Assembly (NCBI GenBank): GCA_025355955.1
Contig: JANXYP010000016.1
Span: forward strand, 73-64,072
Reading direction: 5' to 3'
Length of the DNA stretch: 64,000 bases
DNA from: Chloroflexota bacterium
Lineage (GTDB): Bacteria > Chloroflexota > Chloroflexia > QHBQ01
The notes beneath the pieces were generated by a model, which ran no database searches, was not told the DNA's origin, and saw only the letters and a program-made list of their open reading frames with translations. Both the position numbers and the translations under genes were made by a program. Below are positions 27,722 through 52,115 of this stretch, piece after piece (the stretch's first letter is position 1; each line of letters begins with the position of its first letter).

Positions 27722-27795
27722 TGGGCTGTCGTCTAACGGTAGGACGTCTGATTCTGGATCAGAAAGTTGAGGTTCGAATCCTTGCAGCCCAGCCA
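27722..27795 (+). tRNA. tRNA-Gln (anticodon CTG), CCA encoded
   Basis: Hand-folded cloverleaf. The acceptor stem is TGGGCTG/CAGCCCA. The anticodon stem is TCTGA/TCAGA with loop TTCTGGA. The T-loop is TTCGAAT, and the 3' end is GCCA. Confidence 0.85.
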
Positions 27796-27813
27796 CCCCG
27801 CAAGGGGTTTTTT
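27796..27813 (+). terminator. Intrinsic terminator after tRNA-Gln
   Basis: The CCCCGCAAGGGG hairpin is followed by TTTTTT. Confidence 0.7.
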
Positions 27814-27831
27814 GTTGCCCCGCAAATACGT

Positions 27832-27860
27832 TTGACAAAGCCAGGGGCGTATGCTATAAT
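27832..27860 (+). promoter_or_regulatory. Perfect consensus sigma70 promoter (TTGACA, 17-bp spacer, TATAAT) for the tRNA-Trp/secE-nusG region
   Basis: TTGACA at 27832-27837 and TATAAT at 27855-27860. Confidence 0.75.
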
Positions 27861-27929
27861 ATCGGAGCGAAAGCAACCTCGCCTTATATCGGTGTGGGTT
27901 GCAACGCAAACCAAAAGTTTTAATCGCGT

Positions 27930-28005
27930 AGGCGCGTGGCTCAATTGGCAGAGCATCGGTCTCCAAAACCGAGGGTTGGGGGTTCGAGTCCCTCCGCGCC
28001 TGCCA
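27930..28005 (+). tRNA. tRNA-Trp (anticodon CCA), CCA encoded
   Basis: Hand-folded. The acceptor stem is AGGCGCG/CGCGCCT. The anticodon stem is TCGGT/ACCGA with loop CTCCAAA. The T-arm is GGGGG-TTCGAGT-CCCTC. Its position before secE-nusG is classical. Confidence 0.85.
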
Positions 28006-38223: not shown

Positions 38224-41061
38224 CTAAACCTCGCCCAGGAAGTGCGCGTTGGGGGCAATGTCCATGGCCCAGTCGGAGGTGTCGGCGCGGTCGCGGGCTG
38301 CGCCCTGGGCATGGTAATAGCGATAATAGGCGGCTGCGCCGATCATGGCGGCATTATCAGTGCAGAGCGCCATTGGGGGGTAGATCAGCGGCACTTTGAG
38401 CCGCTCACCCATCATCTCGCGCAGCAGGCGATTGGCGGCCACGCCACCTGCTAGCACCACCATCCGTGCGCCATACTGCTCGGCTGCTGCTGCTGTCTTT
38501 TCCACCAGCACCTCGACCACCGCCAGTTGGAAGGCGGCGGCAATCAAAGCCACCGGCGCATGACCTTTCTTGTCAGAGCCAGCACCAGCACCAACACTGC
38601 CGCGTACCCCCGGTGAGCGGGGCGCGTCTGCACCTAGCGAACGGTTGCGGCGGGAACGGTCATCATCGCCCGGCTCGTCCTCATCGTCGGCGGCGCTACC
38701 GACGCGGCTGCGAGGCGTATCGTCTTCCTCATTGTCAATATAGTCGCGCTCGTCGCGGTCATCGTCATCCGCGCTGCTGCCTTTCGGCACGGGTATTATC
38801 TCGCGCTGGGCAAGGGGTGCGCTGCGCTGAGGCAATTGGCCGGGGCGGGTATAGGTGCCGCGCTGCGACTGCGAGGGCGGCAGAGGGCGGGGCCGATTCA
38901 ACGGTGGTGGGGCGCTGGATGTTGCCGACGGTTGCTGGGCTGGCGACTGAACAGGCCGCTGCTGGGCGGGCGGTTGCTGGGTGGTACGCGACTGGGCGGG
39001 CGGTTGCTGGGTCGGTCGCTGCGATGCGGGCGGTTGCTGGGTCGGTCGCTGCGGTGCGGGCTGGTTGGGCCGTTGCTGCGGCGGTTGCTGGGTGGGGCGT
39101 TGTGGTGCCGGTTCGCTGCCCAGCACCGTGCTGCGGGGATAGATGTTGCCGCCACTCTGCGGTGCTGGTGGTTGTACCACTGGCTGGCCGGGCCGTTGCT
39201 GGGCTGGTGGATTAGGCTGAGGAGTAGGCGGTTGTGGCTGTGAACGCTGGTCAGTGGTGGGCGGATGCATAGCTCGACCCTGCGGCGATAGTGTGCGCGG
39301 CAGCGATTGTTCGTCCTCGTCCTCGTCCTCATCGTCTGCCTGTGGCGCGGTGCGGGGGTCGGGCGTAGGTACAGTGCGGAGTGGGCGGCGCTCCAGGCCG
39401 GGGCCAGTTACTGCCCCCGGTGGCGCAGGCTGCGGTGAACTGGCCGCAGTGGTGGTGGGCTGGTGCGGTGGATTAGCAGTGGCTGCTGGGGTAGCGATCT
39501 CCACCCCATCCTCATCGTCGAACATCGAATAAATAGCGCGGGGGCGCGGCGCGGCCTGGCGCAAGGGGCGACGCTCCAACGCGGGACTAATGGGGGTGGC
39601 GCTTACTGGCGGTTGCACATTGCCATTTTCGTTCTCGTCCCCCTCGTCGTCGTCATCATCACCCTCTTCATCATCATCAGCGGTTTCGTTGGCATCGCGT
39701 ACGAACAGGCTGGCGAGGCGGTCACGCGGCGGTTGTGGGCCGAGGCGGAAGCTCGGCTCCGGCGCGACTTCATCCCCATCATCGTCGGCTTCGACCGCTG
39801 GCGCAGGTGGCAGCGTTGTGGCGCGAGGTGGATTGGCCGGTCGCACTGGCTGGGCAGGCGCGATGCTGGGAGCGGGTGGTACGATGGTGCGGGCGGGAGG
39901 AGTTGGTGGATCGGCCGGTTGCGTTGCAAGTTCTGCGGGTCGAGTCAGGCGGGCAGGCGGTTGGAAGCCACGCGCTTGCGGTTGGCGCGTAGGTTGGTCG
40001 GCGGGGGCAGGCATCGCCAGCGGTTCGCTCACCATTGCAGTAGGCGACTGGCCGGGGCGCACACTGTTGCTATCGCTGGTGGCCTCGCGCCCGGCGGCAT
40101 CGCTACGCTGCTGCGCGGCCTCGACCTCGGCGAATGGGCGCGGCTTATCTACCACTGGCAACCCGCCATACTCGTCAATCTTACGCATCACCGCCGTCTT
40201 CAGCCCGCTGAAGCTGAAGTCGTAGGTGCCGCGCAGCCAGGCGCGAGGCAGGTCAATCTTGCGCGGGTCGACGGGTTCGGCATCGACCAGCTTCTGAATC
40301 GCCGGGCCGCCAGGGTAGCCGAGGCCGAGGATGCGTCCCACCTTGTCGAACGCCTCACCCGCCGCATCATCAATCGTCTTGCCCAGCAGTTCGTACAGCC
40401 CATGCCCGCGCATCAGGATCAGTTCGGTATGCCCGCCCGACACCACCAGAGCAACAATGGGGAACTGCGGTTCTGGTGGTATAGCGACTCCCTCCCCGAT
40501 CTTAGGGGAGGGTTGGGGAGGGGGCGCGGGTTTTGGCACAGGCTCACCCACTGGACGATAGACCGGCGCGGATTGCTCGTAAGCGGCGCGGTACTGGCGG
40601 CTGGACGGCTCCTCGCTATTTATGTCCGACTCCTCAGCGTCGGCGCTGGTGGGCAATTCGGCAACGACCGGCTTGGGCTTGGCAGCGCTATTGGGGATGA
40701 GCCAGTTAGCGTAGATATGGCCCTCGAGGTGGTTGACTGGCAGCAGCGGCTTGCCCAGGGCAAACGCCAGCCCTTTCGCCACGTTGACCCCCACCAGCAA
40801 CGCGCCCGCCAGCCCTGGTCCGTTAGTCACGGCGATGGCATCAATATCGCGCCAGGTGAGGCTCGCTTCCTTCAGCGCAGCTTCCAGGGTTGGCACGATG
40901 TAGAGGATGTGCTGGCGGCTGGCAAGCTCAGGCACGACTCCACCCCAACGCTTGTGCAGCTCGATCTGCGAAGCGACCACGTTGGTGAGGATGCGGCGGC
41001 CATCCTGGATGATTGCCGCCGAGGTTTCGTCACATGAAGTTTCAAAGGCGAGGATGTTCAT
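38224..41061 (-). CDS. tsaD: tRNA N6-adenosine threonylcarbamoyltransferase TsaD interrupted by two large low-complexity insertions (945 aa)
   Basis: The N-terminal part reads [50 protein letters not shown]. The C-terminal part reads [13 protein letters not shown]...CTDNAAMIG. It is one continuous ORF. The inserts cover about residues 124-198 and 300-833. Confidence 0.88.
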
Positions 41062-41069
41062 AGTTTTCT

Positions 41070-41738
41070 CTAGTTGATGTATCCCAACTTGACCAGAGCG
41101 CTTCGCAAATCCGCCTCGAAACGCTGGAAGGATGGTACCTGATGAAGCAGTTGTAAGTTAATGCTTTGGCCGATTATGCCCAGAAAATCCGTTCCGCGTT
41201 GGCGCTCACCTCGTCGCCTAACGACACGTTCACCAAGGACTCTTTGATAGGCGTTCTCCAGTAGTGCTTTAGGGTCAGTCTTTGTTTCCACCAAGCGTGG
41301 CCTGGCGGGAATACCCATCTCGACATTGCTCTTGTTGGTTTGAAATACGTTTCTCAACGTTTCACCATCCACCAATGCCCAGGCTTCCATCTCTCTTACC
41401 GGAATGATGCCAACTACTGGGCAGCCAATAGAAGCAGTTACCAGCTCTGTCACTGGCTCAATATGGTTTTGCTGTGCCGCTTCCCAGCTTCCCCCTGCAT
41501 CTGCATGGATTAATAGAATGTCGAACCAACCTTCATATGGTCGTGTGGCATACAGGATGCGTTGCCTTTCGCTGCTGGCACTCTCTTTTTCAGGATAAAG
41601 CTCGATTATTTCTTCGACATCAATCTCACCACTATTGCCGGTGCAGATTGCTTGGGCAGTGCGTCGTATCAGGCTGAGGAAGAAGCGATAGTCGGAACGG
41701 CCCTCACCATAGAAGGCTAGCTTAAGCTGCCTAGTCAT
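41070..41738 (-). CDS. TOPRIM-like small protein (DUF4276-like), putative nuclease partner of the upstream ABC ATPase
   Basis: The ATG at 41738 (9 nt after GGGAGG) overlaps the ATPase stop in ATGACTAG. Motifs are [14 protein letters not shown] (Glu-Gly strand), LLIHADAGG (acidic cluster) and [12 protein letters not shown]. The DUF4276 assignment is from memory. Confidence 0.6.
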
Positions 41739-43119
41739 GTACAACTACCTCCCAGTCAATGGTTGAGAGATAGCGGTTGACTTGATATTTGCTGGTGAAC
41801 TGACTTCTTGTCCCAAAGCCAACCGGCAACTTGGGCAGCACACGTCTTGCGATCGTTTTGCGGCTGGATGCGCTGACTAGAGGCCTGACAGACATTGCCA
41901 TCTCGGTAAAGATGGTCTCCCCTTCCTCTACGCTAATGCTTGACAGAACCACAGGCGAATGGCTGGTAAGCAACATCTGCAAAAGATTCTGTTCATAAAT
42001 GTTTTCGTCAGCTACATTAGTGACGAGTTCGCGCAACCTGCTCACTAGCTGCTTAAGGCGTAGTGGGTTAATGCCGTTCTCTGGCTCCTCCAGACAAATC
42101 AAGCCCTGCTGATCGGGGTCGTAGAGCATTGCTAGTACCGCCATAGTGCGTAGCGTCCCGTCCGATGCAGTAGCGCAATCCATAAACGCTCCGCCGTTCG
42201 CCCGCACTTTGATATAATAGCGGTTGCCTTGGTCAAGTTCAACCTCGAAATCTTCAATCCCTGGAATCAAATCGGCTAGATCGGTGGCAATATCGTTGAG
42301 CACACCGCGGGGATAATCAGAAGTCGCGGTTATCGCTTGTATTCTCGCCAACGCGCTTGCCAGGTTAGATCCATCATTGCCGATCTCGCGGCTAGTTGCT
42401 GGACTTGGTTCGCGCAAGGCTCTGGGATTGAGTTGGAGGAAGCGATAGGCAGCTAGTTCTTGGCGCAAGGCATAGAGATGCGGTAGTTCGCTACTCTTAA
42501 TGCTCGCCAGCATTGGTGCTTCGGCGTATTTCTGTTGGCGGCGCACCTCTTGTTCTTGCCTACCATCAGGGTACATAACAAAGGCTATACTATCTCCCTG
42601 ATATCCGCTAATACTAGTGAGTAGGGGTCTACTACAGTTATATTTAACATAGCGTTCTCTGAATTGCTCGGAGGAAGGGTTAAGCTCTCGAATCCAAATA
42701 TCCTCTTGCTCTATGATGGGTCGTACTTCCTCTTTGGTTACAACTATGATACGCTCACCACGCTCGTTGACCAGACGCTGGATATTCAGCTCATAGCGAA
42801 GACGAGTACATTCTAGGGTGATTTGTTCGCCCAGACTCCCAGTCACGTTGGGGTCTAGTAGCACTTCGACGGCGAAAAACATCTGATCGCCACTCCGTCC
42901 ATCTGCGTATCTGGTGAACAACTCGTCAGGTGCGCCGCGAATGGCGCTGAAGGCAGCGCTGAGATTGTCGCTGGTAACTGCCCGGCTCACTGCCTGAACA
43001 GCATCCAGAATATTCGACTTACCCGATGCGTTTGGCCCCAGGATAACTGTAAAAGGACCGAGGTCCAGACTGAAGTTTTCAAAGCTCTTAAACCCGCTAA
43101 TCTCAATTCGGGTTAGCAT
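41731..43119 (-). CDS. SMC/RecF/OLD-type ABC ATPase (AAA_15/AAA_21-like)
   Basis: 462 aa with the N-terminus MLTRIEISGFKSF, Walker A GPNASGKSN, signature-like ASDGTLRTMAVLAML, Walker B LICLEEPENGINP and H-loop LLTSHSP. Composition is lower-GC. Confidence 0.8.
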   Translation of the reverse strand: MLTRIEISGFKSFENFSLDLGPFTVILGPNASGKSNILDAVQAVSRAVTSDNLSAAFSAIRGAPDELFTRYADGRSGDQMFFAVEVLLDPNVTGSLGEQITLECTRLRYELNIQRLVNERGERIIVVTKEEVRPIIEQEDIWIRELNPSSEQFRERYVKYNCSRPLLTSISGYQGDSIAFVMYPDGRQEQEVRRQQKYAEAPMLASIKSSELPHLYALRQELAAYRFLQLNPRALREPSPATSREIGNDGSNLASALARIQAITATSDYPRGVLNDIATDLADLIPGIEDFEVELDQGNRYYIKVRANGGAFMDCATASDGTLRTMAVLAMLYDPDQQGLICLEEPENGINPLRLKQLVSRLRELVTNVADENIYEQNLLQMLLTSHSPVVLSSISVEEGETIFTEMAMSVRPLVSASSRKTIARRVLPKLPVGFGTRSQFTSKYQVNRYLSTIDWEVVVHD

Positions 43120-43128
43120 CTTGTCCCC

Positions 43129-43842
43129 CTAATGTTCCTCAGCAAGCTGGCTGGGTGCGGGATTAGCGGCGCGGGCGGGTGCTCCCTTCTGCTGCGCTTT
43201 GGCGGCCATACGCTGCTCTAGTTCGGCCCGCAAGCGGGTAAGACGGCGCTGAAACTCGTCGCTTTGTAGCGGCTCCGACCACATGATGAAGGCATCCTCG
43301 CCGTTATCGCTATAGTAGCGGCGGCGGCGACCTGCCTCCTTCAATCCGTACTTGCGGTAGAGCGCTTGCGCTACTGTGTTCGAGACCCGCACTTCGAGGG
43401 TCAGCCAGATGGCCTTCATCTCCAACGCCTGGTCAATCATCGATAGGAACAGCAGTTCACCCACGCTTTGCCCCTGATGGCTGGGCATAACTGCTATGGT
43501 GGTAACGTGTGCCTCATCCACCATCAGCCACAGGCCAGCGTAGCCGACGATCGGGTAGGGGTTGGCCGCGCCCGCGCCTGGTTTGTCGCTAGCGAGGAAG
43601 GGGAGCAGCCGCGTTAGCCAACTGCGTTCACTCTGCCGCAGGCTCTTGCTGCCGTTGGCCTGGGCCAGCTTGGCCTTGATCGGGTCATCCACCCAGCGAG
43701 CCACCACGTAGCGGTTGGTGTTGGGGGTACGCAGTTCGCGACGATACGCGCTGGTCGGCCACGGCAGGCTGAAGCACTGCCGCTCGATGCCTGCCACTGC
43801 GTCAATATCGTCGTAATCCATCGGCTCAATGATGTATGGCAA
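43129..43842 (-). CDS. rimI: Ribosomal-protein-alanine N-acetyltransferase RimI (GNAT) with a C-terminal extension
   Basis: IERQCFSLPWPTSAYRREL and the acetyl-CoA loop HQGQSVGELLF. The ~60-aa C-terminal tail is predicted helical and charged. Confidence 0.8.
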   Translation of the reverse strand: MPYIIEPMDYDDIDAVAGIERQCFSLPWPTSAYRRELRTPNTNRYVVARWVDDPIKAKLAQANGSKSLRQSERSWLTRLLPFLASDKPGAGAANPYPIVGYAGLWLMVDEAHVTTIAVMPSHQGQSVGELLFLSMIDQALEMKAIWLTLEVRVSNTVAQALYRKYGLKEAGRRRRYYSDNGEDAFIMWSEPLQSDEFQRRLTRLRAELEQRMAAKAQQKGAPARAANPAPSQLAEEH

Positions 43843-50180: not shown

Positions 50181-50319
50181 TGTTTATTTCCCCTCATCGG
50201 CGCGTCGTAGCGCCCAATATCCGCAAATTATATGAACCTTGGTTCGCGCAAACAGGGCAGCCAGGCGAACAGGGTTCTTTCACACCCTATTGTACAATTA
50301 TTAGGCTGTTTTGGCAAGT

Positions 50320-50348
50320 TTGCCGTCCACCCGAACCTGTGCTATAAT
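50320..50348 (+). promoter_or_regulatory. Promoter of the fused MNT-HEPN gene (TTGCCG, 17-bp spacer, TGcTATAAT)
   Basis: TTGCCG at 50320-50325 and TATAAT at 50343-50348 with an upstream TG. The RBS AAGGAGG lies before the ATG at 50374. Confidence 0.6.
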
Positions 50349-50373
50349 GTCGTATATAACAAAGGAGGCAGTT

Positions 50374-51177
50374 ATGGCAAGCAGCAATATAATGCTGGAA
50401 GGGGCTGTATATGTTCCACCCTTCAACCAGCGTGAGCGCATCCCCAAAGAGGCGGTTGACTTCCTCGTGCGACAAATTGCCGAGCAGTTCCACCCTGAGC
50501 GCATCATCCTGTTCGGCTCCTATGCCTACGGCACTCCCGACCCAGAGAGCGATGTGAATCTGCTAGTGGTGATGGATACGCCGACCAATGAGTTTGAGCA
50601 AGCGTCGCACATTAAACACTCAATCAAGCGCAGTTTCGAGCTTGACCTGCTGCTACGAACTCCTGACAACCTTGCCCGCCGCATTGCTCTGGGTGACTTC
50701 TTCCTTAGAGATATCGTGCAAAAGGGCAGCGCTCTATACGGGCCTCCCGTGCGTGAGGGCGAATATGCAATTGACCTGGAATCGGATGCTGCTGCCGAGC
50801 TAAACCCGCTAACCGCTGAGTGGATAGAGAGGGCTGAAAGCCACTACGTTAGTATGGAGATTTTGGCTCAGGCACTCAAGAGCTATGACCACATCTGCTT
50901 TTACGCGCAGTTGAGCGCTGAGGCGTATCTGAAAGCCTATCTACAGGAACATAAGATATACTTTCCAAAGACGTATGACTTCTCTTATTTGCTGCAGCTT
51001 TGTCTAACAAGCGATGCCGAGTTCGAGACAATACGCTCTCCTTTGCAGCAGTTCACCCAGGATGATGCTGAGAATTATGTCTACCCCGGCTACTGGGCAG
51101 ATGCATCCGAGGCTAATGCTTTGTCCAAAGCGGCAGCCTCTATCCGCAATTTGCTCCGCGCCAAACTGGGTCTCTGA
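50374..51177 (+). CDS. Fused nucleotidyltransferase (MNT)-HEPN protein, module B
   Basis: The N-half carries ILFGSYAYGTPDPESDVNLLVVMD. The C-half carries AEAYLKAYLQEH...YVYPGYW...IRNLLRAKLG. Both halves are paralogous to the split modules A and C. Confidence 0.8.
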   Translation: MASSNIMLEGAVYVPPFNQRERIPKEAVDFLVRQIAEQFHPERIILFGSYAYGTPDPESDVNLLVVMDTPTNEFEQASHIKHSIKRSFELDLLLRTPDNLARRIALGDFFLRDIVQKGSALYGPPVREGEYAIDLESDAAAELNPLTAEWIERAESHYVSMEILAQALKSYDHICFYAQLSAEAYLKAYLQEHKIYFPKTYDFSYLLQLCLTSDAEFETIRSPLQQFTQDDAENYVYPGYWADASEANALSKAAASIRNLLRAKLGL

Positions 51178-51233: not shown

Positions 51234-52115
51234 ATGACCAACCACTCCACCCCCGACCATCAAGCCAACGTCACCTATCCCGACCTATCAGAGCGTGAAC
51301 CCACGTTGAGCGAACCGCTGCTGGGGATCAACACCAACCCTGATGCTGCCACAGCGCCTGCACCTGCGCGACGCAAGGCGCGGACTAGCAATGAGCCACT
51401 TGTCTACCAAACGCCACAAAGCGGTGGCCGCCTGACTATCAAGGAGATGGCTGCCGACGAGCGCCCCCGCGAGAAGCTGATCAAGCAAGGTGCTGGCAGC
51501 TTGAGCAATGCCGAGTTGCTGGCGATTATTCTGCGGGTTGGTCGCCCCGGCGAGACGGTGGTCGAGCTTGCTAACCGCTTGTTGGTACAATACAGTGGCT
51601 GGTCGGGGTTGATGCGGGCCGACTTCAACAAGCTGAAGGGCGAGAAAGGGCTGGGCGAGGTCAAGGCGTGCGAGCTGCAGGCCGCGCTGGAGATAGGCCG
51701 TCGCCTGCTACTGGCTGGGCCGGGTGAGCGGATGCAGATACGCAACCCATCGGATATCGCTAACTGGCTGATGCTGGACATGGCCGGGCTGGAGCAAGAG
51801 CATCTTCGCGTGGTGCTGCTAAACACCAAGAACCAGGTGATCCGCATGGTCGAGCTATATCGCGGGTCGCTGAACAAGAGTACCGTGCGCGTCGCCGAGC
51901 TATTCAAGGATGCGGTGCGCGAGAACGCCGCGGCGATCATCATTGCCCACAACCACCCCAGCGGCGACCCTGAGCCTTCGACTGAGGACATCGTAATGAC
52001 CGGCAAGGCGGTAGATGCTGGGCGGTTGATGGAGGTCGAGGTGCTTGATCACCTTATCATTGGCGAACAGCGCTACATTTCGATGAAAGAAAAGCGATAT
52101 GGGTTCGTTCATTAG
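51234..52115 (+). CDS. radC: RadC-family JAB-domain protein (UPF0758)
   Basis: HhH-like segment NAELLAIILRVG and JAMM motif IIAHNHPSGDPEPSTED. It has a ~65-aa N-terminal extension. Confidence 0.85.
   Translation: MTNHSTPDHQANVTYPDLSEREPTLSEPLLGINTNPDAATAPAPARRKARTSNEPLVYQTPQSGGRLTIKEMAADERPREKLIKQGAGSLSNAELLAIILRVGRPGETVVELANRLLVQYSGWSGLMRADFNKLKGEKGLGEVKACELQAALEIGRRLLLAGPGERMQIRNPSDIANWLMLDMAGLEQEHLRVVLLNTKNQVIRMVELYRGSLNKSTVRVAELFKDAVRENAAAIIIAHNHPSGDPEPSTEDIVMTGKAVDAGRLMEVEVLDHLIIGEQRYISMKEKRYGFVH

Follow-up and report, generated by a model that had tools for sequence, protein, structure and literature searches.

An ABC ATPase–DUF4276 gene pair of the HEC-01 type between rimI and tsaD in a narrow clade of Chloroflexota

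The cassette and its two proteins

The window considered here is a 64,000-nucleotide (nt) stretch of contig JANXYP010000016.1 (GenBank assembly GCA_025355955.1) from a Chloroflexota bacterium, and our subject is a cassette of two overlapping genes on its minus strand, set between a rimI-like gene and tsaD: the first encodes an ABC ATPase (A, below) and the second a small protein of the DUF4276 family (B). A preliminary description of this DNA had picked out both genes, their motif strings, their overlap, and the 8-9 nt gaps on either side, and we found each of these in place on the minus strand. The locus is laid out as follows, with the basis of each assignment in parentheses:

43129..43842 (minus strand): upstream flank, rimI-like GNAT acetyltransferase, 237 amino acids (aa), GC content at third codon positions (GC3) 0.74 (Pfam Acetyltransf_1, 2.3e-12)
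43120..43128 (minus strand): 9-nt spacer GGGGACAAG from the rimI stop to the ATPase ATG, Shine-Dalgarno-like (sequence)
41731..43119 (minus strand): HEC-01A-type ABC ATPase, 462 aa (PADLOC PDLC04184, Pfam AAA_21 and AAA_15, motifs, AlphaFold2 model)
41731..41738 (minus strand): 8-nt overlap ATGACTAG of the ATPase stop and the DUF4276 start (direct sequence reading)
41070..41738 (minus strand): HEC-01B-type DUF4276 protein, 222 aa, putative Toprim-like nuclease (PADLOC PDLC04210, Pfam DUF4276, 97-sequence alignment, AlphaFold2 model)
41062..41069 (minus strand): 8-nt spacer from the DUF4276 stop to the tsaD ATG (sequence)
38224..41061 (minus strand): downstream flank, tsaD, 945 aa, GC3 0.69 (Pfam TsaD, 8.8e-89)

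The identity of the pair rests on profile matches to the hidden Markov models of PADLOC-DB v2, both of them full length: the HEC-01A model PDLC04184 matches the ATPase at 1.4e-141 (470.7 bits, with residues 1-454 aligned to positions 1-460 of the 464 in the profile), and the HEC-01B model PDLC04210 matches B at 3.7e-59 (198.1 bits, with residues 5-223 aligned to positions 2-215 of the 217). The two genes are also adjacent on the same strand, as HEC-01 requires, and overlap by the 8 nt of ATGACTAG. By these matches the cassette belongs to HEC-01, a candidate type already catalogued, which was named as the first Hma-embedded candidate, an ABC ATPase with a TOPRIM-like protein found inside Hma systems (Payne et al., bioRxiv 10.1101/2024.01.29.577857). 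The preliminary description was thus right about the kind of conflict system, an ABC ATPase paired with a DUF4276 protein, and mistaken in calling it uncharacterized, as HEC-01 has been tested twice with mixed results.

The motif strings of the ATPase (MLTRIEISGFKSF, GPNASGKSN, ASDGTLR, LICLEEPENGINP, and TSHSP) comprise the ABC motifs in the right order: Walker A at G28-N36 (with K34), the Q-loop at Q229, the signature at S319-R324 (SDGTLR), Walker B at E344-E345-PENG, and the H-loop at H387. The 285 aa between Walker A and the signature form the long insert that marks the SMC/Rad50/OLD/PtuA class. Pfam returned AAA_21 (2e-25), AAA_15 (4e-15), and the N-terminal part of SMC_N, and the AlphaFold2 model, with a predicted local distance difference test score (pLDDT) of 92.1, has as its nearest Protein Data Bank (PDB) structures in Foldseek PtuA (from Septu and retron systems), SMC and Rad50 heads, and OLD nuclease (E ~1e-12). 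The template modeling (TM) scores of these matches are only 0.35-0.47, so what they share is the ABC head fold. Taken together, these results uphold the initial reading of an SMC/RecF/OLD-type ABC ATPase.

The ATPase has at least 1,929 relatives at E <= 1e-10. Across 124 aligned sequences, Walker A (G-x-N-x-x-G-K-S-N), the signature (S-D-G-T-(L/I)-R), Walker B (E-E-P-E-N-G, that is, Glu-Glu instead of Asp-Glu), and the H-loop histidine are invariant, with leucine at the variable signature position in 122 and the Q-loop glutamine present in 120; all of these motifs are intact in the window protein. The window ATPase also deviates at three family sites of 90-97% conservation, with D231N, H351N, and N385T; of these, H351 falls in the E-P-E-N-G-V-H-P segment after Walker B. 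Against PHROG, the ATPase matched only families of unknown function.

Protein B matches Pfam DUF4276 (PF14103) over nearly the whole profile (32.2 bits with a cut-off of 30.2, 1.6e-7, profile positions 2-191 of 192), as do all 97 of its aligned relatives, and the subfamily holds 583 cluster representatives at E <= 1e-30. The start of its gene at ATG 41738 (222 aa) agrees with database protein P0001; an upstream TTG at 41744 would give 224 aa. Invariant or nearly so in the 97 sequences are E12, G13, D16, H78, D80, R115, E116, E118, W120, E151, D155, and K157. The AlphaFold2 model (pLDDT 94.9, predicted TM score 0.91) runs through β1, E12-G13, α1, a β-hairpin, α2, β3, H78-x-D80, α3, β4, and P113-V-R115-E116-x-E118-A-W120 to a helical C-terminal part, and this order of elements and placement of motifs fit a Toprim topology in the model. 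In particular, a conserved glutamate ends β-1, as in Toprim domains: E12 (at least 90% conserved) and the invariant G13 directly follow model strand 7-10.

Several results nonetheless weigh against taking the Toprim assignment as firm. In place of the Toprim DxD motif, which the literature describes for the DUF4276 domains of Menshen, B has H78-x-D80 after strand 74-78, invariant in 97/97 sequences. Foldseek gave the B model no significant match in the PDB and no Toprim protein among the top 50 (best E 5e-3, TM ~0.3); Toprim Pfam models, with E allowed up to 1, matched none of the 97 family members; and an hhalign comparison of B with the Toprim region of P2 Old reached a probability of 0.2%, aligning only the E-G-x-T strand. 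Searches of B against NCBIfam, PHROG, and PDB sequences and profiles were likewise without a significant match, as was a Foldseek search of the viral models in BFVD, and the OLD-like_TOPRIM Pfam family matched neither the window proteins nor the 97 B relatives. With Foldseek, Pfam, and hhalign all lacking a Toprim match, our reading of B as a Toprim-like nuclease leans on the literature: its topology, the positions of its motifs, and two papers that place DUF4276 in the Toprim superfamily from structural comparison together suggest it. The preliminary description, which had proposed a TOPRIM-like fold of the DUF4276 type, accordingly stands as to DUF4276, with the Toprim fold left unconfirmed by these searches. 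Separately, the DUF4276 profile weakly matches the 'IIVEGKTDESFF' strand of PH0156 (PDB 2p62 chain A; E 0.8, non-significant), and this archaeal hypothetical protein of solved structure may be a distant relative.

Occupancy of the rimI-tsaD junction

To ask how often the junction is occupied, we compared the window with other loci (L-numbers below) through RimI-based scans of Chloroflexota, covering 80 loci in species-representative genomes and 80 metagenome loci from the Joint Genome Institute. In 66/80 of the genome loci and 62/80 of the metagenome loci, 128/160 in all, tsaD follows rimI directly, in keeping with the preliminary description of the two genes as direct neighbors. The direct junctions include that of Ktedonobacter racemifer, and the nearest cassette-free relatives have RimI proteins about 55-58% identical to that of the window (55-57% for L010 and L012). 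The cassette was found in the genome scan only in L009, the closest locus (RimI 68% identical), and in none of the 80 metagenome loci, where no RimI is closer than 58%.

The nearest relatives of both cassette proteins occupy the same rimI-tsaD slot. The gene orders read rimI-A-B-tsaD-recJ in L004, rimI-A-B-tsaD in L009, rimI-A-B in L089, and A-B-tsaD in L002/L003 and L005-L008. The carriers form a narrow uncultured group of Chloroflexota related to Ktedonobacteria, and the cassette is present in 6/6 distinct clade loci with a visible junction and in no locus outside that clade; the sample is small, at six alleles mostly on short contigs. A recent, sporadic insertion is ruled out, with all six clade loci occupied and alleles down to 39-45% identity. 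The empty junctions of L010, L012, and L092 hold no remnants of the cassette, and at the junctions we saw no convincing flanking repeats and no integrase. From these comparisons of gene order, the cassette appears to have been inserted into an otherwise contiguous rimI-tsaD pair, to be restricted to one clade, and to have been kept in every sampled member of it.

Within the slot, the genes are packed closely enough to suggest joint expression. The ATGACTAG overlap is consistent with translational coupling of the ATPase and DUF4276 genes, the GGGGGA Shine-Dalgarno-like run of the rimI-ATPase spacer reaches across the rimI stop codon, and in L004 and L005-L008 the DUF4276 gene overlaps tsaD by 4 nt in place of the spacer. 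A scan of 36-46 kb of the window showed no terminator-like site on the coding (minus) strand and no Rfam family, and promoter-like sites that could serve the cassette alone occur in the sequence scan at chance level only.

Such packing lends itself to the possibility that the cassette is a selfish passenger, of little or no benefit to the host, locked in between rimI and the essential tsaD because an imprecise deletion or a polar mutation harms tsaD expression, with the effect possibly heightened if B and A are tied to each other in an addiction-like (toxin/antitoxin-type) manner. The tight junctions without a terminator and the overlaps with tsaD would fit this possibility, as would the occupation of 6/6 clade loci although their surroundings form no defence island, and the Pfam entry for AAA_21 speaks of a putative AbiEii toxin, part of a type IV toxin–antitoxin system. 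We consider it unlikely, for reasons that emerge from the divergence of the alleles below.

Six family members from outside the clade lie in unrelated contexts, none of them near tsaD or rimI. One, in a metagenome-assembled genome (MAG) of Nitrospinota (L173, 2642-10382), is a HEC-01A-type ATPase within a BREX locus (BrxA, an Eco57I/PglX-like fragment, and BrxL), in which the next open reading frame (ORF) after the ATPase is 101 aa long without a Pfam match; its neighborhood includes a ParDE pair and a resolvase. Another (L174, 6001-13356, on a 7-Mb contig) is an ATPase and DUF4276 pair directly upstream of a pPIWI-RE module (REase, Z, PIWI-RE). The scans also returned L022 ('Bathyarchaeia archaeon') and L031 ('Proteobacteria bacterium'), each with a Chloroflexota-like rimI whose product is 43% identical to that of the window, directly followed by tsaD in L022; these probably reflect mis-binning in the source MAGs.

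The TsaD protein of the window is itself unusual in carrying two low-complexity expansions rich in Pro, Gln, Glu, and Asp (~550 aa) in an otherwise normal TsaD. It is 945 aa long, its L004 counterpart measures 953 aa, and an expansion of this kind is present in L002 too; the TsaD proteins of the other Chloroflexota loci measure 332-442 aa, so the expansion is specific to the cassette-bearing clade.

Composition, divergence, and exchange of alleles

The cassette is compositionally foreign to its surroundings. Its GC content is 0.506 where the window averages 0.596 (z-score -3.6 relative to all other 2-kb windows), and in GC3 its genes (0.51 and 0.53) rank below all others among the 42 non-overlapping window ORFs of at least 200 aa, whose median is 0.75. 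Chance would not produce a dip of this size, and the low GC content noted at the outset is borne out by both measures. The same holds throughout the slot, in which GC3 is 0.41-0.56 across all alleles and 0.69-0.82 in the flanks. Outside the slot, by contrast, family members follow their hosts, with a GC3 of 0.41-0.46 in a locus of 47.5% GC (L090) and of 0.64-0.69 in Limnochorda (68.5% GC). Together with the cassette-free junctions of relatives, the foreign GC3 agrees with the proposal in the preliminary description that the pair is a horizontally acquired module in an essential operon. That text had also reasoned that a cassette conserved throughout its lineage with native composition would point to a housekeeping role; presence throughout the sampled clade is indeed what we see, but the composition is not native and the alleles are hyper-divergent, both of which argue against a plain housekeeping role.

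The divergence of the alleles is striking when set against that of their flanks. Between the window and L004, RimI is 83% and RecJ 78% identical, against 68% for the ATPase and 45% for the DUF4276 protein; compared with L002/L003 and L005/L006, the N-terminal part of the window TsaD is 76-88% identical, against 41-44% for the ATPase and 42-43% for the DUF4276 protein. Overall, flanking proteins of clade members share 68-89% identity and cassette proteins, with one closely related pair excepted, 39-68%. At the level of synonymous sites, the proportion of differences (pS) between the window and L004 is 0.75-0.82 in the cassette, which is saturated, and 0.48-0.58 in the flanks, which is not, a comparison made harder to interpret by the differing base compositions.

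One pair of loci reveals that the alleles have also exchanged segments. L009 (12088-12781) and L005 (1306-1992) form a mosaic, in which the ATPase proteins are 93% and the DUF4276 proteins 59-61% identical. At the DNA level, the ATPase genes are 82-99% identical; within the DUF4276 gene identity falls abruptly to 46-62% over its 5' half, and by tsaD it is back at 94%. Synonymous divergence (dS) is 0.23 in the ATPase gene, 1.13 in the DUF4276 gene, and 0.16 in tsaD. As selection on the protein cannot raise dS, the DUF4276 segment must have a separate and older history, and segments of alleles have thus been exchanged at the slot; in-place divergence without exchange is ruled out for this pair by a dS in B that is 5-7x that of the adjacent genes. 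These sequence comparisons demonstrate recombination in the cassette.

Foreign composition and exchange raise the possibility that the slot is a hotspot, refilled repeatedly with HEC-01-type cassettes from an external pool of lower GC content. By raw identity the slot groups are indeed nearer to outsiders (48-59%) than to each other (39-51%), GC3 stays at ~0.5 in all alleles even though synonymous sites are saturated, within-cassette recombination is demonstrated, and the native GC3 of the L090 pair means that suitable donors exist. Once distances are corrected for rate, however, the slot ATPases group as one clan on long branches (60/100 bootstraps) and the slot B proteins cluster as well (81/100, with at most 3 extras). 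Of the ATPase residues, R69 and W96, invariant in 117/117 outsiders, are replaced in all three slot groups, as are the near-invariant R223 and W225, and these shared losses favor a single origin. The junctions and empty sites, with their want of integrase, repeats, or remnants, also fail to bear out repeated refilling, and there is no evident mechanism that would target one family to the same 10-nt spacer from donors without the flanks. Repeated refilling thus seems to us unlikely, if still a serious alternative, and what the alleles most likely record is one insertion in an ancestor, after which change sped up as the constraints shifted.

The slot ATPases depart from consensus at 9-24 of 115 sites that are at least 95% conserved in outsiders, whereas among outsiders such departures average 1.4 and never exceed 8. 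Such departures would fit the relaxed constraint expected of a locked-in passenger. The reading frames are nevertheless intact in all slot alleles, the catalytic-type residues are invariant in the 97 B and 124 A sequences, and the ratio of nonsynonymous to synonymous divergence (dN/dS) comes to 0.18 in A and 0.26 in B (the values span 0.18-0.31); low dN/dS together with conserved catalytic-type residues indicates purifying selection and no decay, and a pseudogene or decaying remnant is excluded on the same grounds. For the lock-in account, these values mean selection on protein function beyond a mere open frame, and the exchange of alleles by recombination suggests that selection samples the variation itself; lock-in, moreover, accounts for the retention of the cassette and not for its hyper-divergence.

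A single old insertion does not, for its part, explain why GC3 has stayed low despite saturated synonymous divergence. We can offer three candidate causes: segments may still be imported from donors of lower GC content; rare codons may be selected, holding a toxic module at a low level; or the alleles may have escaped GC-biased gene conversion, being too divergent to recombine internally at a frequency like that of core genes.

Elsewhere in the window, the third-lowest GC3 (0.59) of the 42 ORFs belongs to a nucleotidyltransferase and HEPN fusion gene at 50311-51177 (plus strand), whose architecture is toxin–antitoxin-like and which is probably another horizontally acquired conflict gene; RadC, at 51234-52115, adjoins it. 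The sole tRNA genes of the window, tRNA-Gln(CTG) and tRNA-Trp(CCA) at 27722-28005 (plus strand), have no relation to the cassette.

Proposed function and comparison with known systems

On balance, we think it probable, with moderate confidence, that the cassette is a conflict module of the HEC-01 type that was acquired horizontally and became fixed in the rimI-tsaD operon, its alleles diverging and recombining thereafter. The ancestor of this narrow clade would have gained the A-B pair, most likely once, in the short rimI-tsaD spacer, and the cassette would since have been read as part of the housekeeping operon; its alleles would then have outpaced the flanks in divergence, swapped segments, and lost residues invariant in the family, while keeping the catalytic-type motifs. 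By analogy with PARIS, Septu, and Gabija, an oligomer of A may act as a sensor that keeps B inactive, until a phage or mobile-element trigger, with ATP binding or hydrolysis at K34, E344-E345, and H387, releases or activates B. The acidic/histidine cluster of B (E12, H78-x-D80, and E116/E118) might then cleave DNA or tRNA/RNA and so stop the infection, possibly at a cost to the cell. Placement in an essential operon would give constitutive and stoichiometric expression of A and B, and the cost of an imprecise deletion there would help explain fixation.

For the family as a whole, an association with defence is drawn from its discovery inside Hma systems, from protection of E. coli B, from the outsiders linked to BREX and pPIWI-RE, and from mad3 and mad4 deletions. 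In the case of protection, a cold-seep study found that one HEC-01 representative protected E. coli B from at least one of T4, T5, and T7.

Several points weigh against extending this picture to the window. The representative tested by Payne et al. (10.1101/2024.01.29.577857) gave no protection in E. coli, and since the functional data come only from other representatives, an anti-phage role of the window allele is suggested by its family; the assignment of B as a nuclease is similarly indirect, being based on topology, motif positions, and the literature. The departures of the slot ATPases from consensus could reflect a changed function other than classical defence. Embedding in or beside another defence system, by which HEC-01 was discovered but which is no part of the PADLOC model, is not seen here, and no defence island surrounds the window cassette, whose neighbors are housekeeping genes (rimI, tsaD, recJ, a cyclic di-AMP receptor, and pdxS/pdxT). 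Finally, the DUF4276 subfamily was not found in the viral contigs scanned with its profile. We set aside a phage origin of the cassette on the strength of that scan and of the missing PHROG match for B.

The setting invites one further explanation, that the pair has been domesticated for a function in tRNA biology or N6-threonylcarbamoyladenosine (t6A) modification, perhaps as a nuclease whose targets are hypomodified or foreign ANN-decoding tRNAs and whose expression is linked to that of TsaD. Clade members share both the fixed position of the pair and its translational coupling with tsaD, otherwise invariant ATPase residues are gone from the slot lineage, the ~550-aa expansion of TsaD is unique to the same clade, and a related effector, AriB of PARIS, degrades tRNA according to PMC11464382. 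Yet 0/6 outsider family members lie near tsaD or rimI, so the association with tsaD would have arisen just once; identities as low as 39-45% are not normal for housekeeping genes of organisms whose TsaD N-terminal regions share 76-89%; allele swapping and lasting foreign codon usage are unusual for such genes; and neither protein has a sequence feature linking it to tRNA. We regard domestication as very improbable, and the speculation about t6A and tRNA in the preliminary description thus gains no support beyond position. A fuller version, in which the slot lineage has ceased to be a classical anti-phage module and is a co-opted tRNA-directed surveillance or regulatory nuclease with a dosage tied to TsaD and a history of co-evolution with the TsaD expansion, seems just as improbable, although if true it could account for both the loss of invariant residues and the clade-wide fixation.

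Returning to the favored reading of a horizontally acquired HEC-01-type module, the type of cassette adds little in itself, as HEC-01 is already in PADLOC; what is new is the setting: the cassette resides in the rimI-tsaD operon throughout a clade, and there diverges fast, recombines, and keeps a foreign composition. We appear to have here a naturally occurring case in which an ATPase–nuclease pair of defence type has stayed fixed within an operon that includes an essential gene until synonymous sites became saturated, with purifying selection, foreign composition, and the exchange of allele segments all persisting. Should a larger sample agree, the slot would supply syntenic diverged alleles for mapping the HEC-01 surfaces that set specificity, as well as a case of a conflict system becoming a core-genome resident whose composition fails to ameliorate.

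Among known systems, the closest is HEC-01 itself, which shares the gene content and order of the window pair, with the ABC ATPase first and the small Toprim-like/DUF4276 protein second. Unlike the Hma-embedded candidates, however, the window pair sits in a housekeeping operon, clade-fixed and outside any defence system, and unlike other family members the slot lineage is without R69 and W96; the published tests concern representatives other than the window allele. MADS is related through both proteins: Mad3 is the best NCBIfam match of the window ATPase, Mad4 is a DUF4276 homologue according to the literature, and deletion of mad3 or mad4 reduces MADS defence in Pseudomonas aeruginosa. The ATPase scores 136 bits on the Mad3 model NF047739, with a cut-off of 420, and is therefore a relative of Mad3 and no equivalog; MADS has eight genes, and no methyltransferase, mad6-8, or other mad gene lies near the window cassette, so that membership in MADS was rejected.

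PARIS, like the window pair, joins an AAA_15/21-type ABC ATPase (AriA) to a separate small effector of the Toprim superfamily (AriB), and DUF4276 partners figure among the domain annotations of a published AAA15/21 tree of defence proteins. The AriA models match the ATPase only in part, however (PDLC02980, residues 273-393, 4e-27), and the window B is a DUF4276 protein without a DUF4435 match where AriB is DUF4435; on both counts membership in PARIS was rejected, and the window pair offers no evidence of a trigger or of a tRNA target. The PtuA, GajA, and Old models of PADLOC, like those of AriA, match the ATPase only partially. Septu (PtuA/PtuB) and retron PtuA, which provide the closest solved structures, likewise combine an ATPase with a separate nuclease, but the similarity is one of the ABC head fold (TM ~0.4-0.47), and PtuB is an HNH nuclease whereas B is DUF4276. 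In OLD nucleases and Gabija GajA, an ABC ATPase is again joined to Toprim chemistry, and the window ATPase matches the OLD nuclease 6p74 both in sequence (the N-terminal 44 aa, 3e-5) and in fold; there, however, ATPase and Toprim are fused, where the window has two overlapping genes, and the Old and GajA models of PADLOC cover only the N-terminal 42-47 aa. The separate genes and N-terminal-only matches led us to reject membership in OLD class 1 or 2.

In its genomic behavior, the cassette resembles allelic defence loci that lie between core genes; the hsd 'immigration control region' of E. coli and core-genome defence hotspots are examples, and they too combine a fixed slot with divergent, recombining alleles. 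Compared with such hsd-type loci, the window slot is free of mobility genes and lies inside an operon with an essential gene, bounded by spacers of at most 10 nt.

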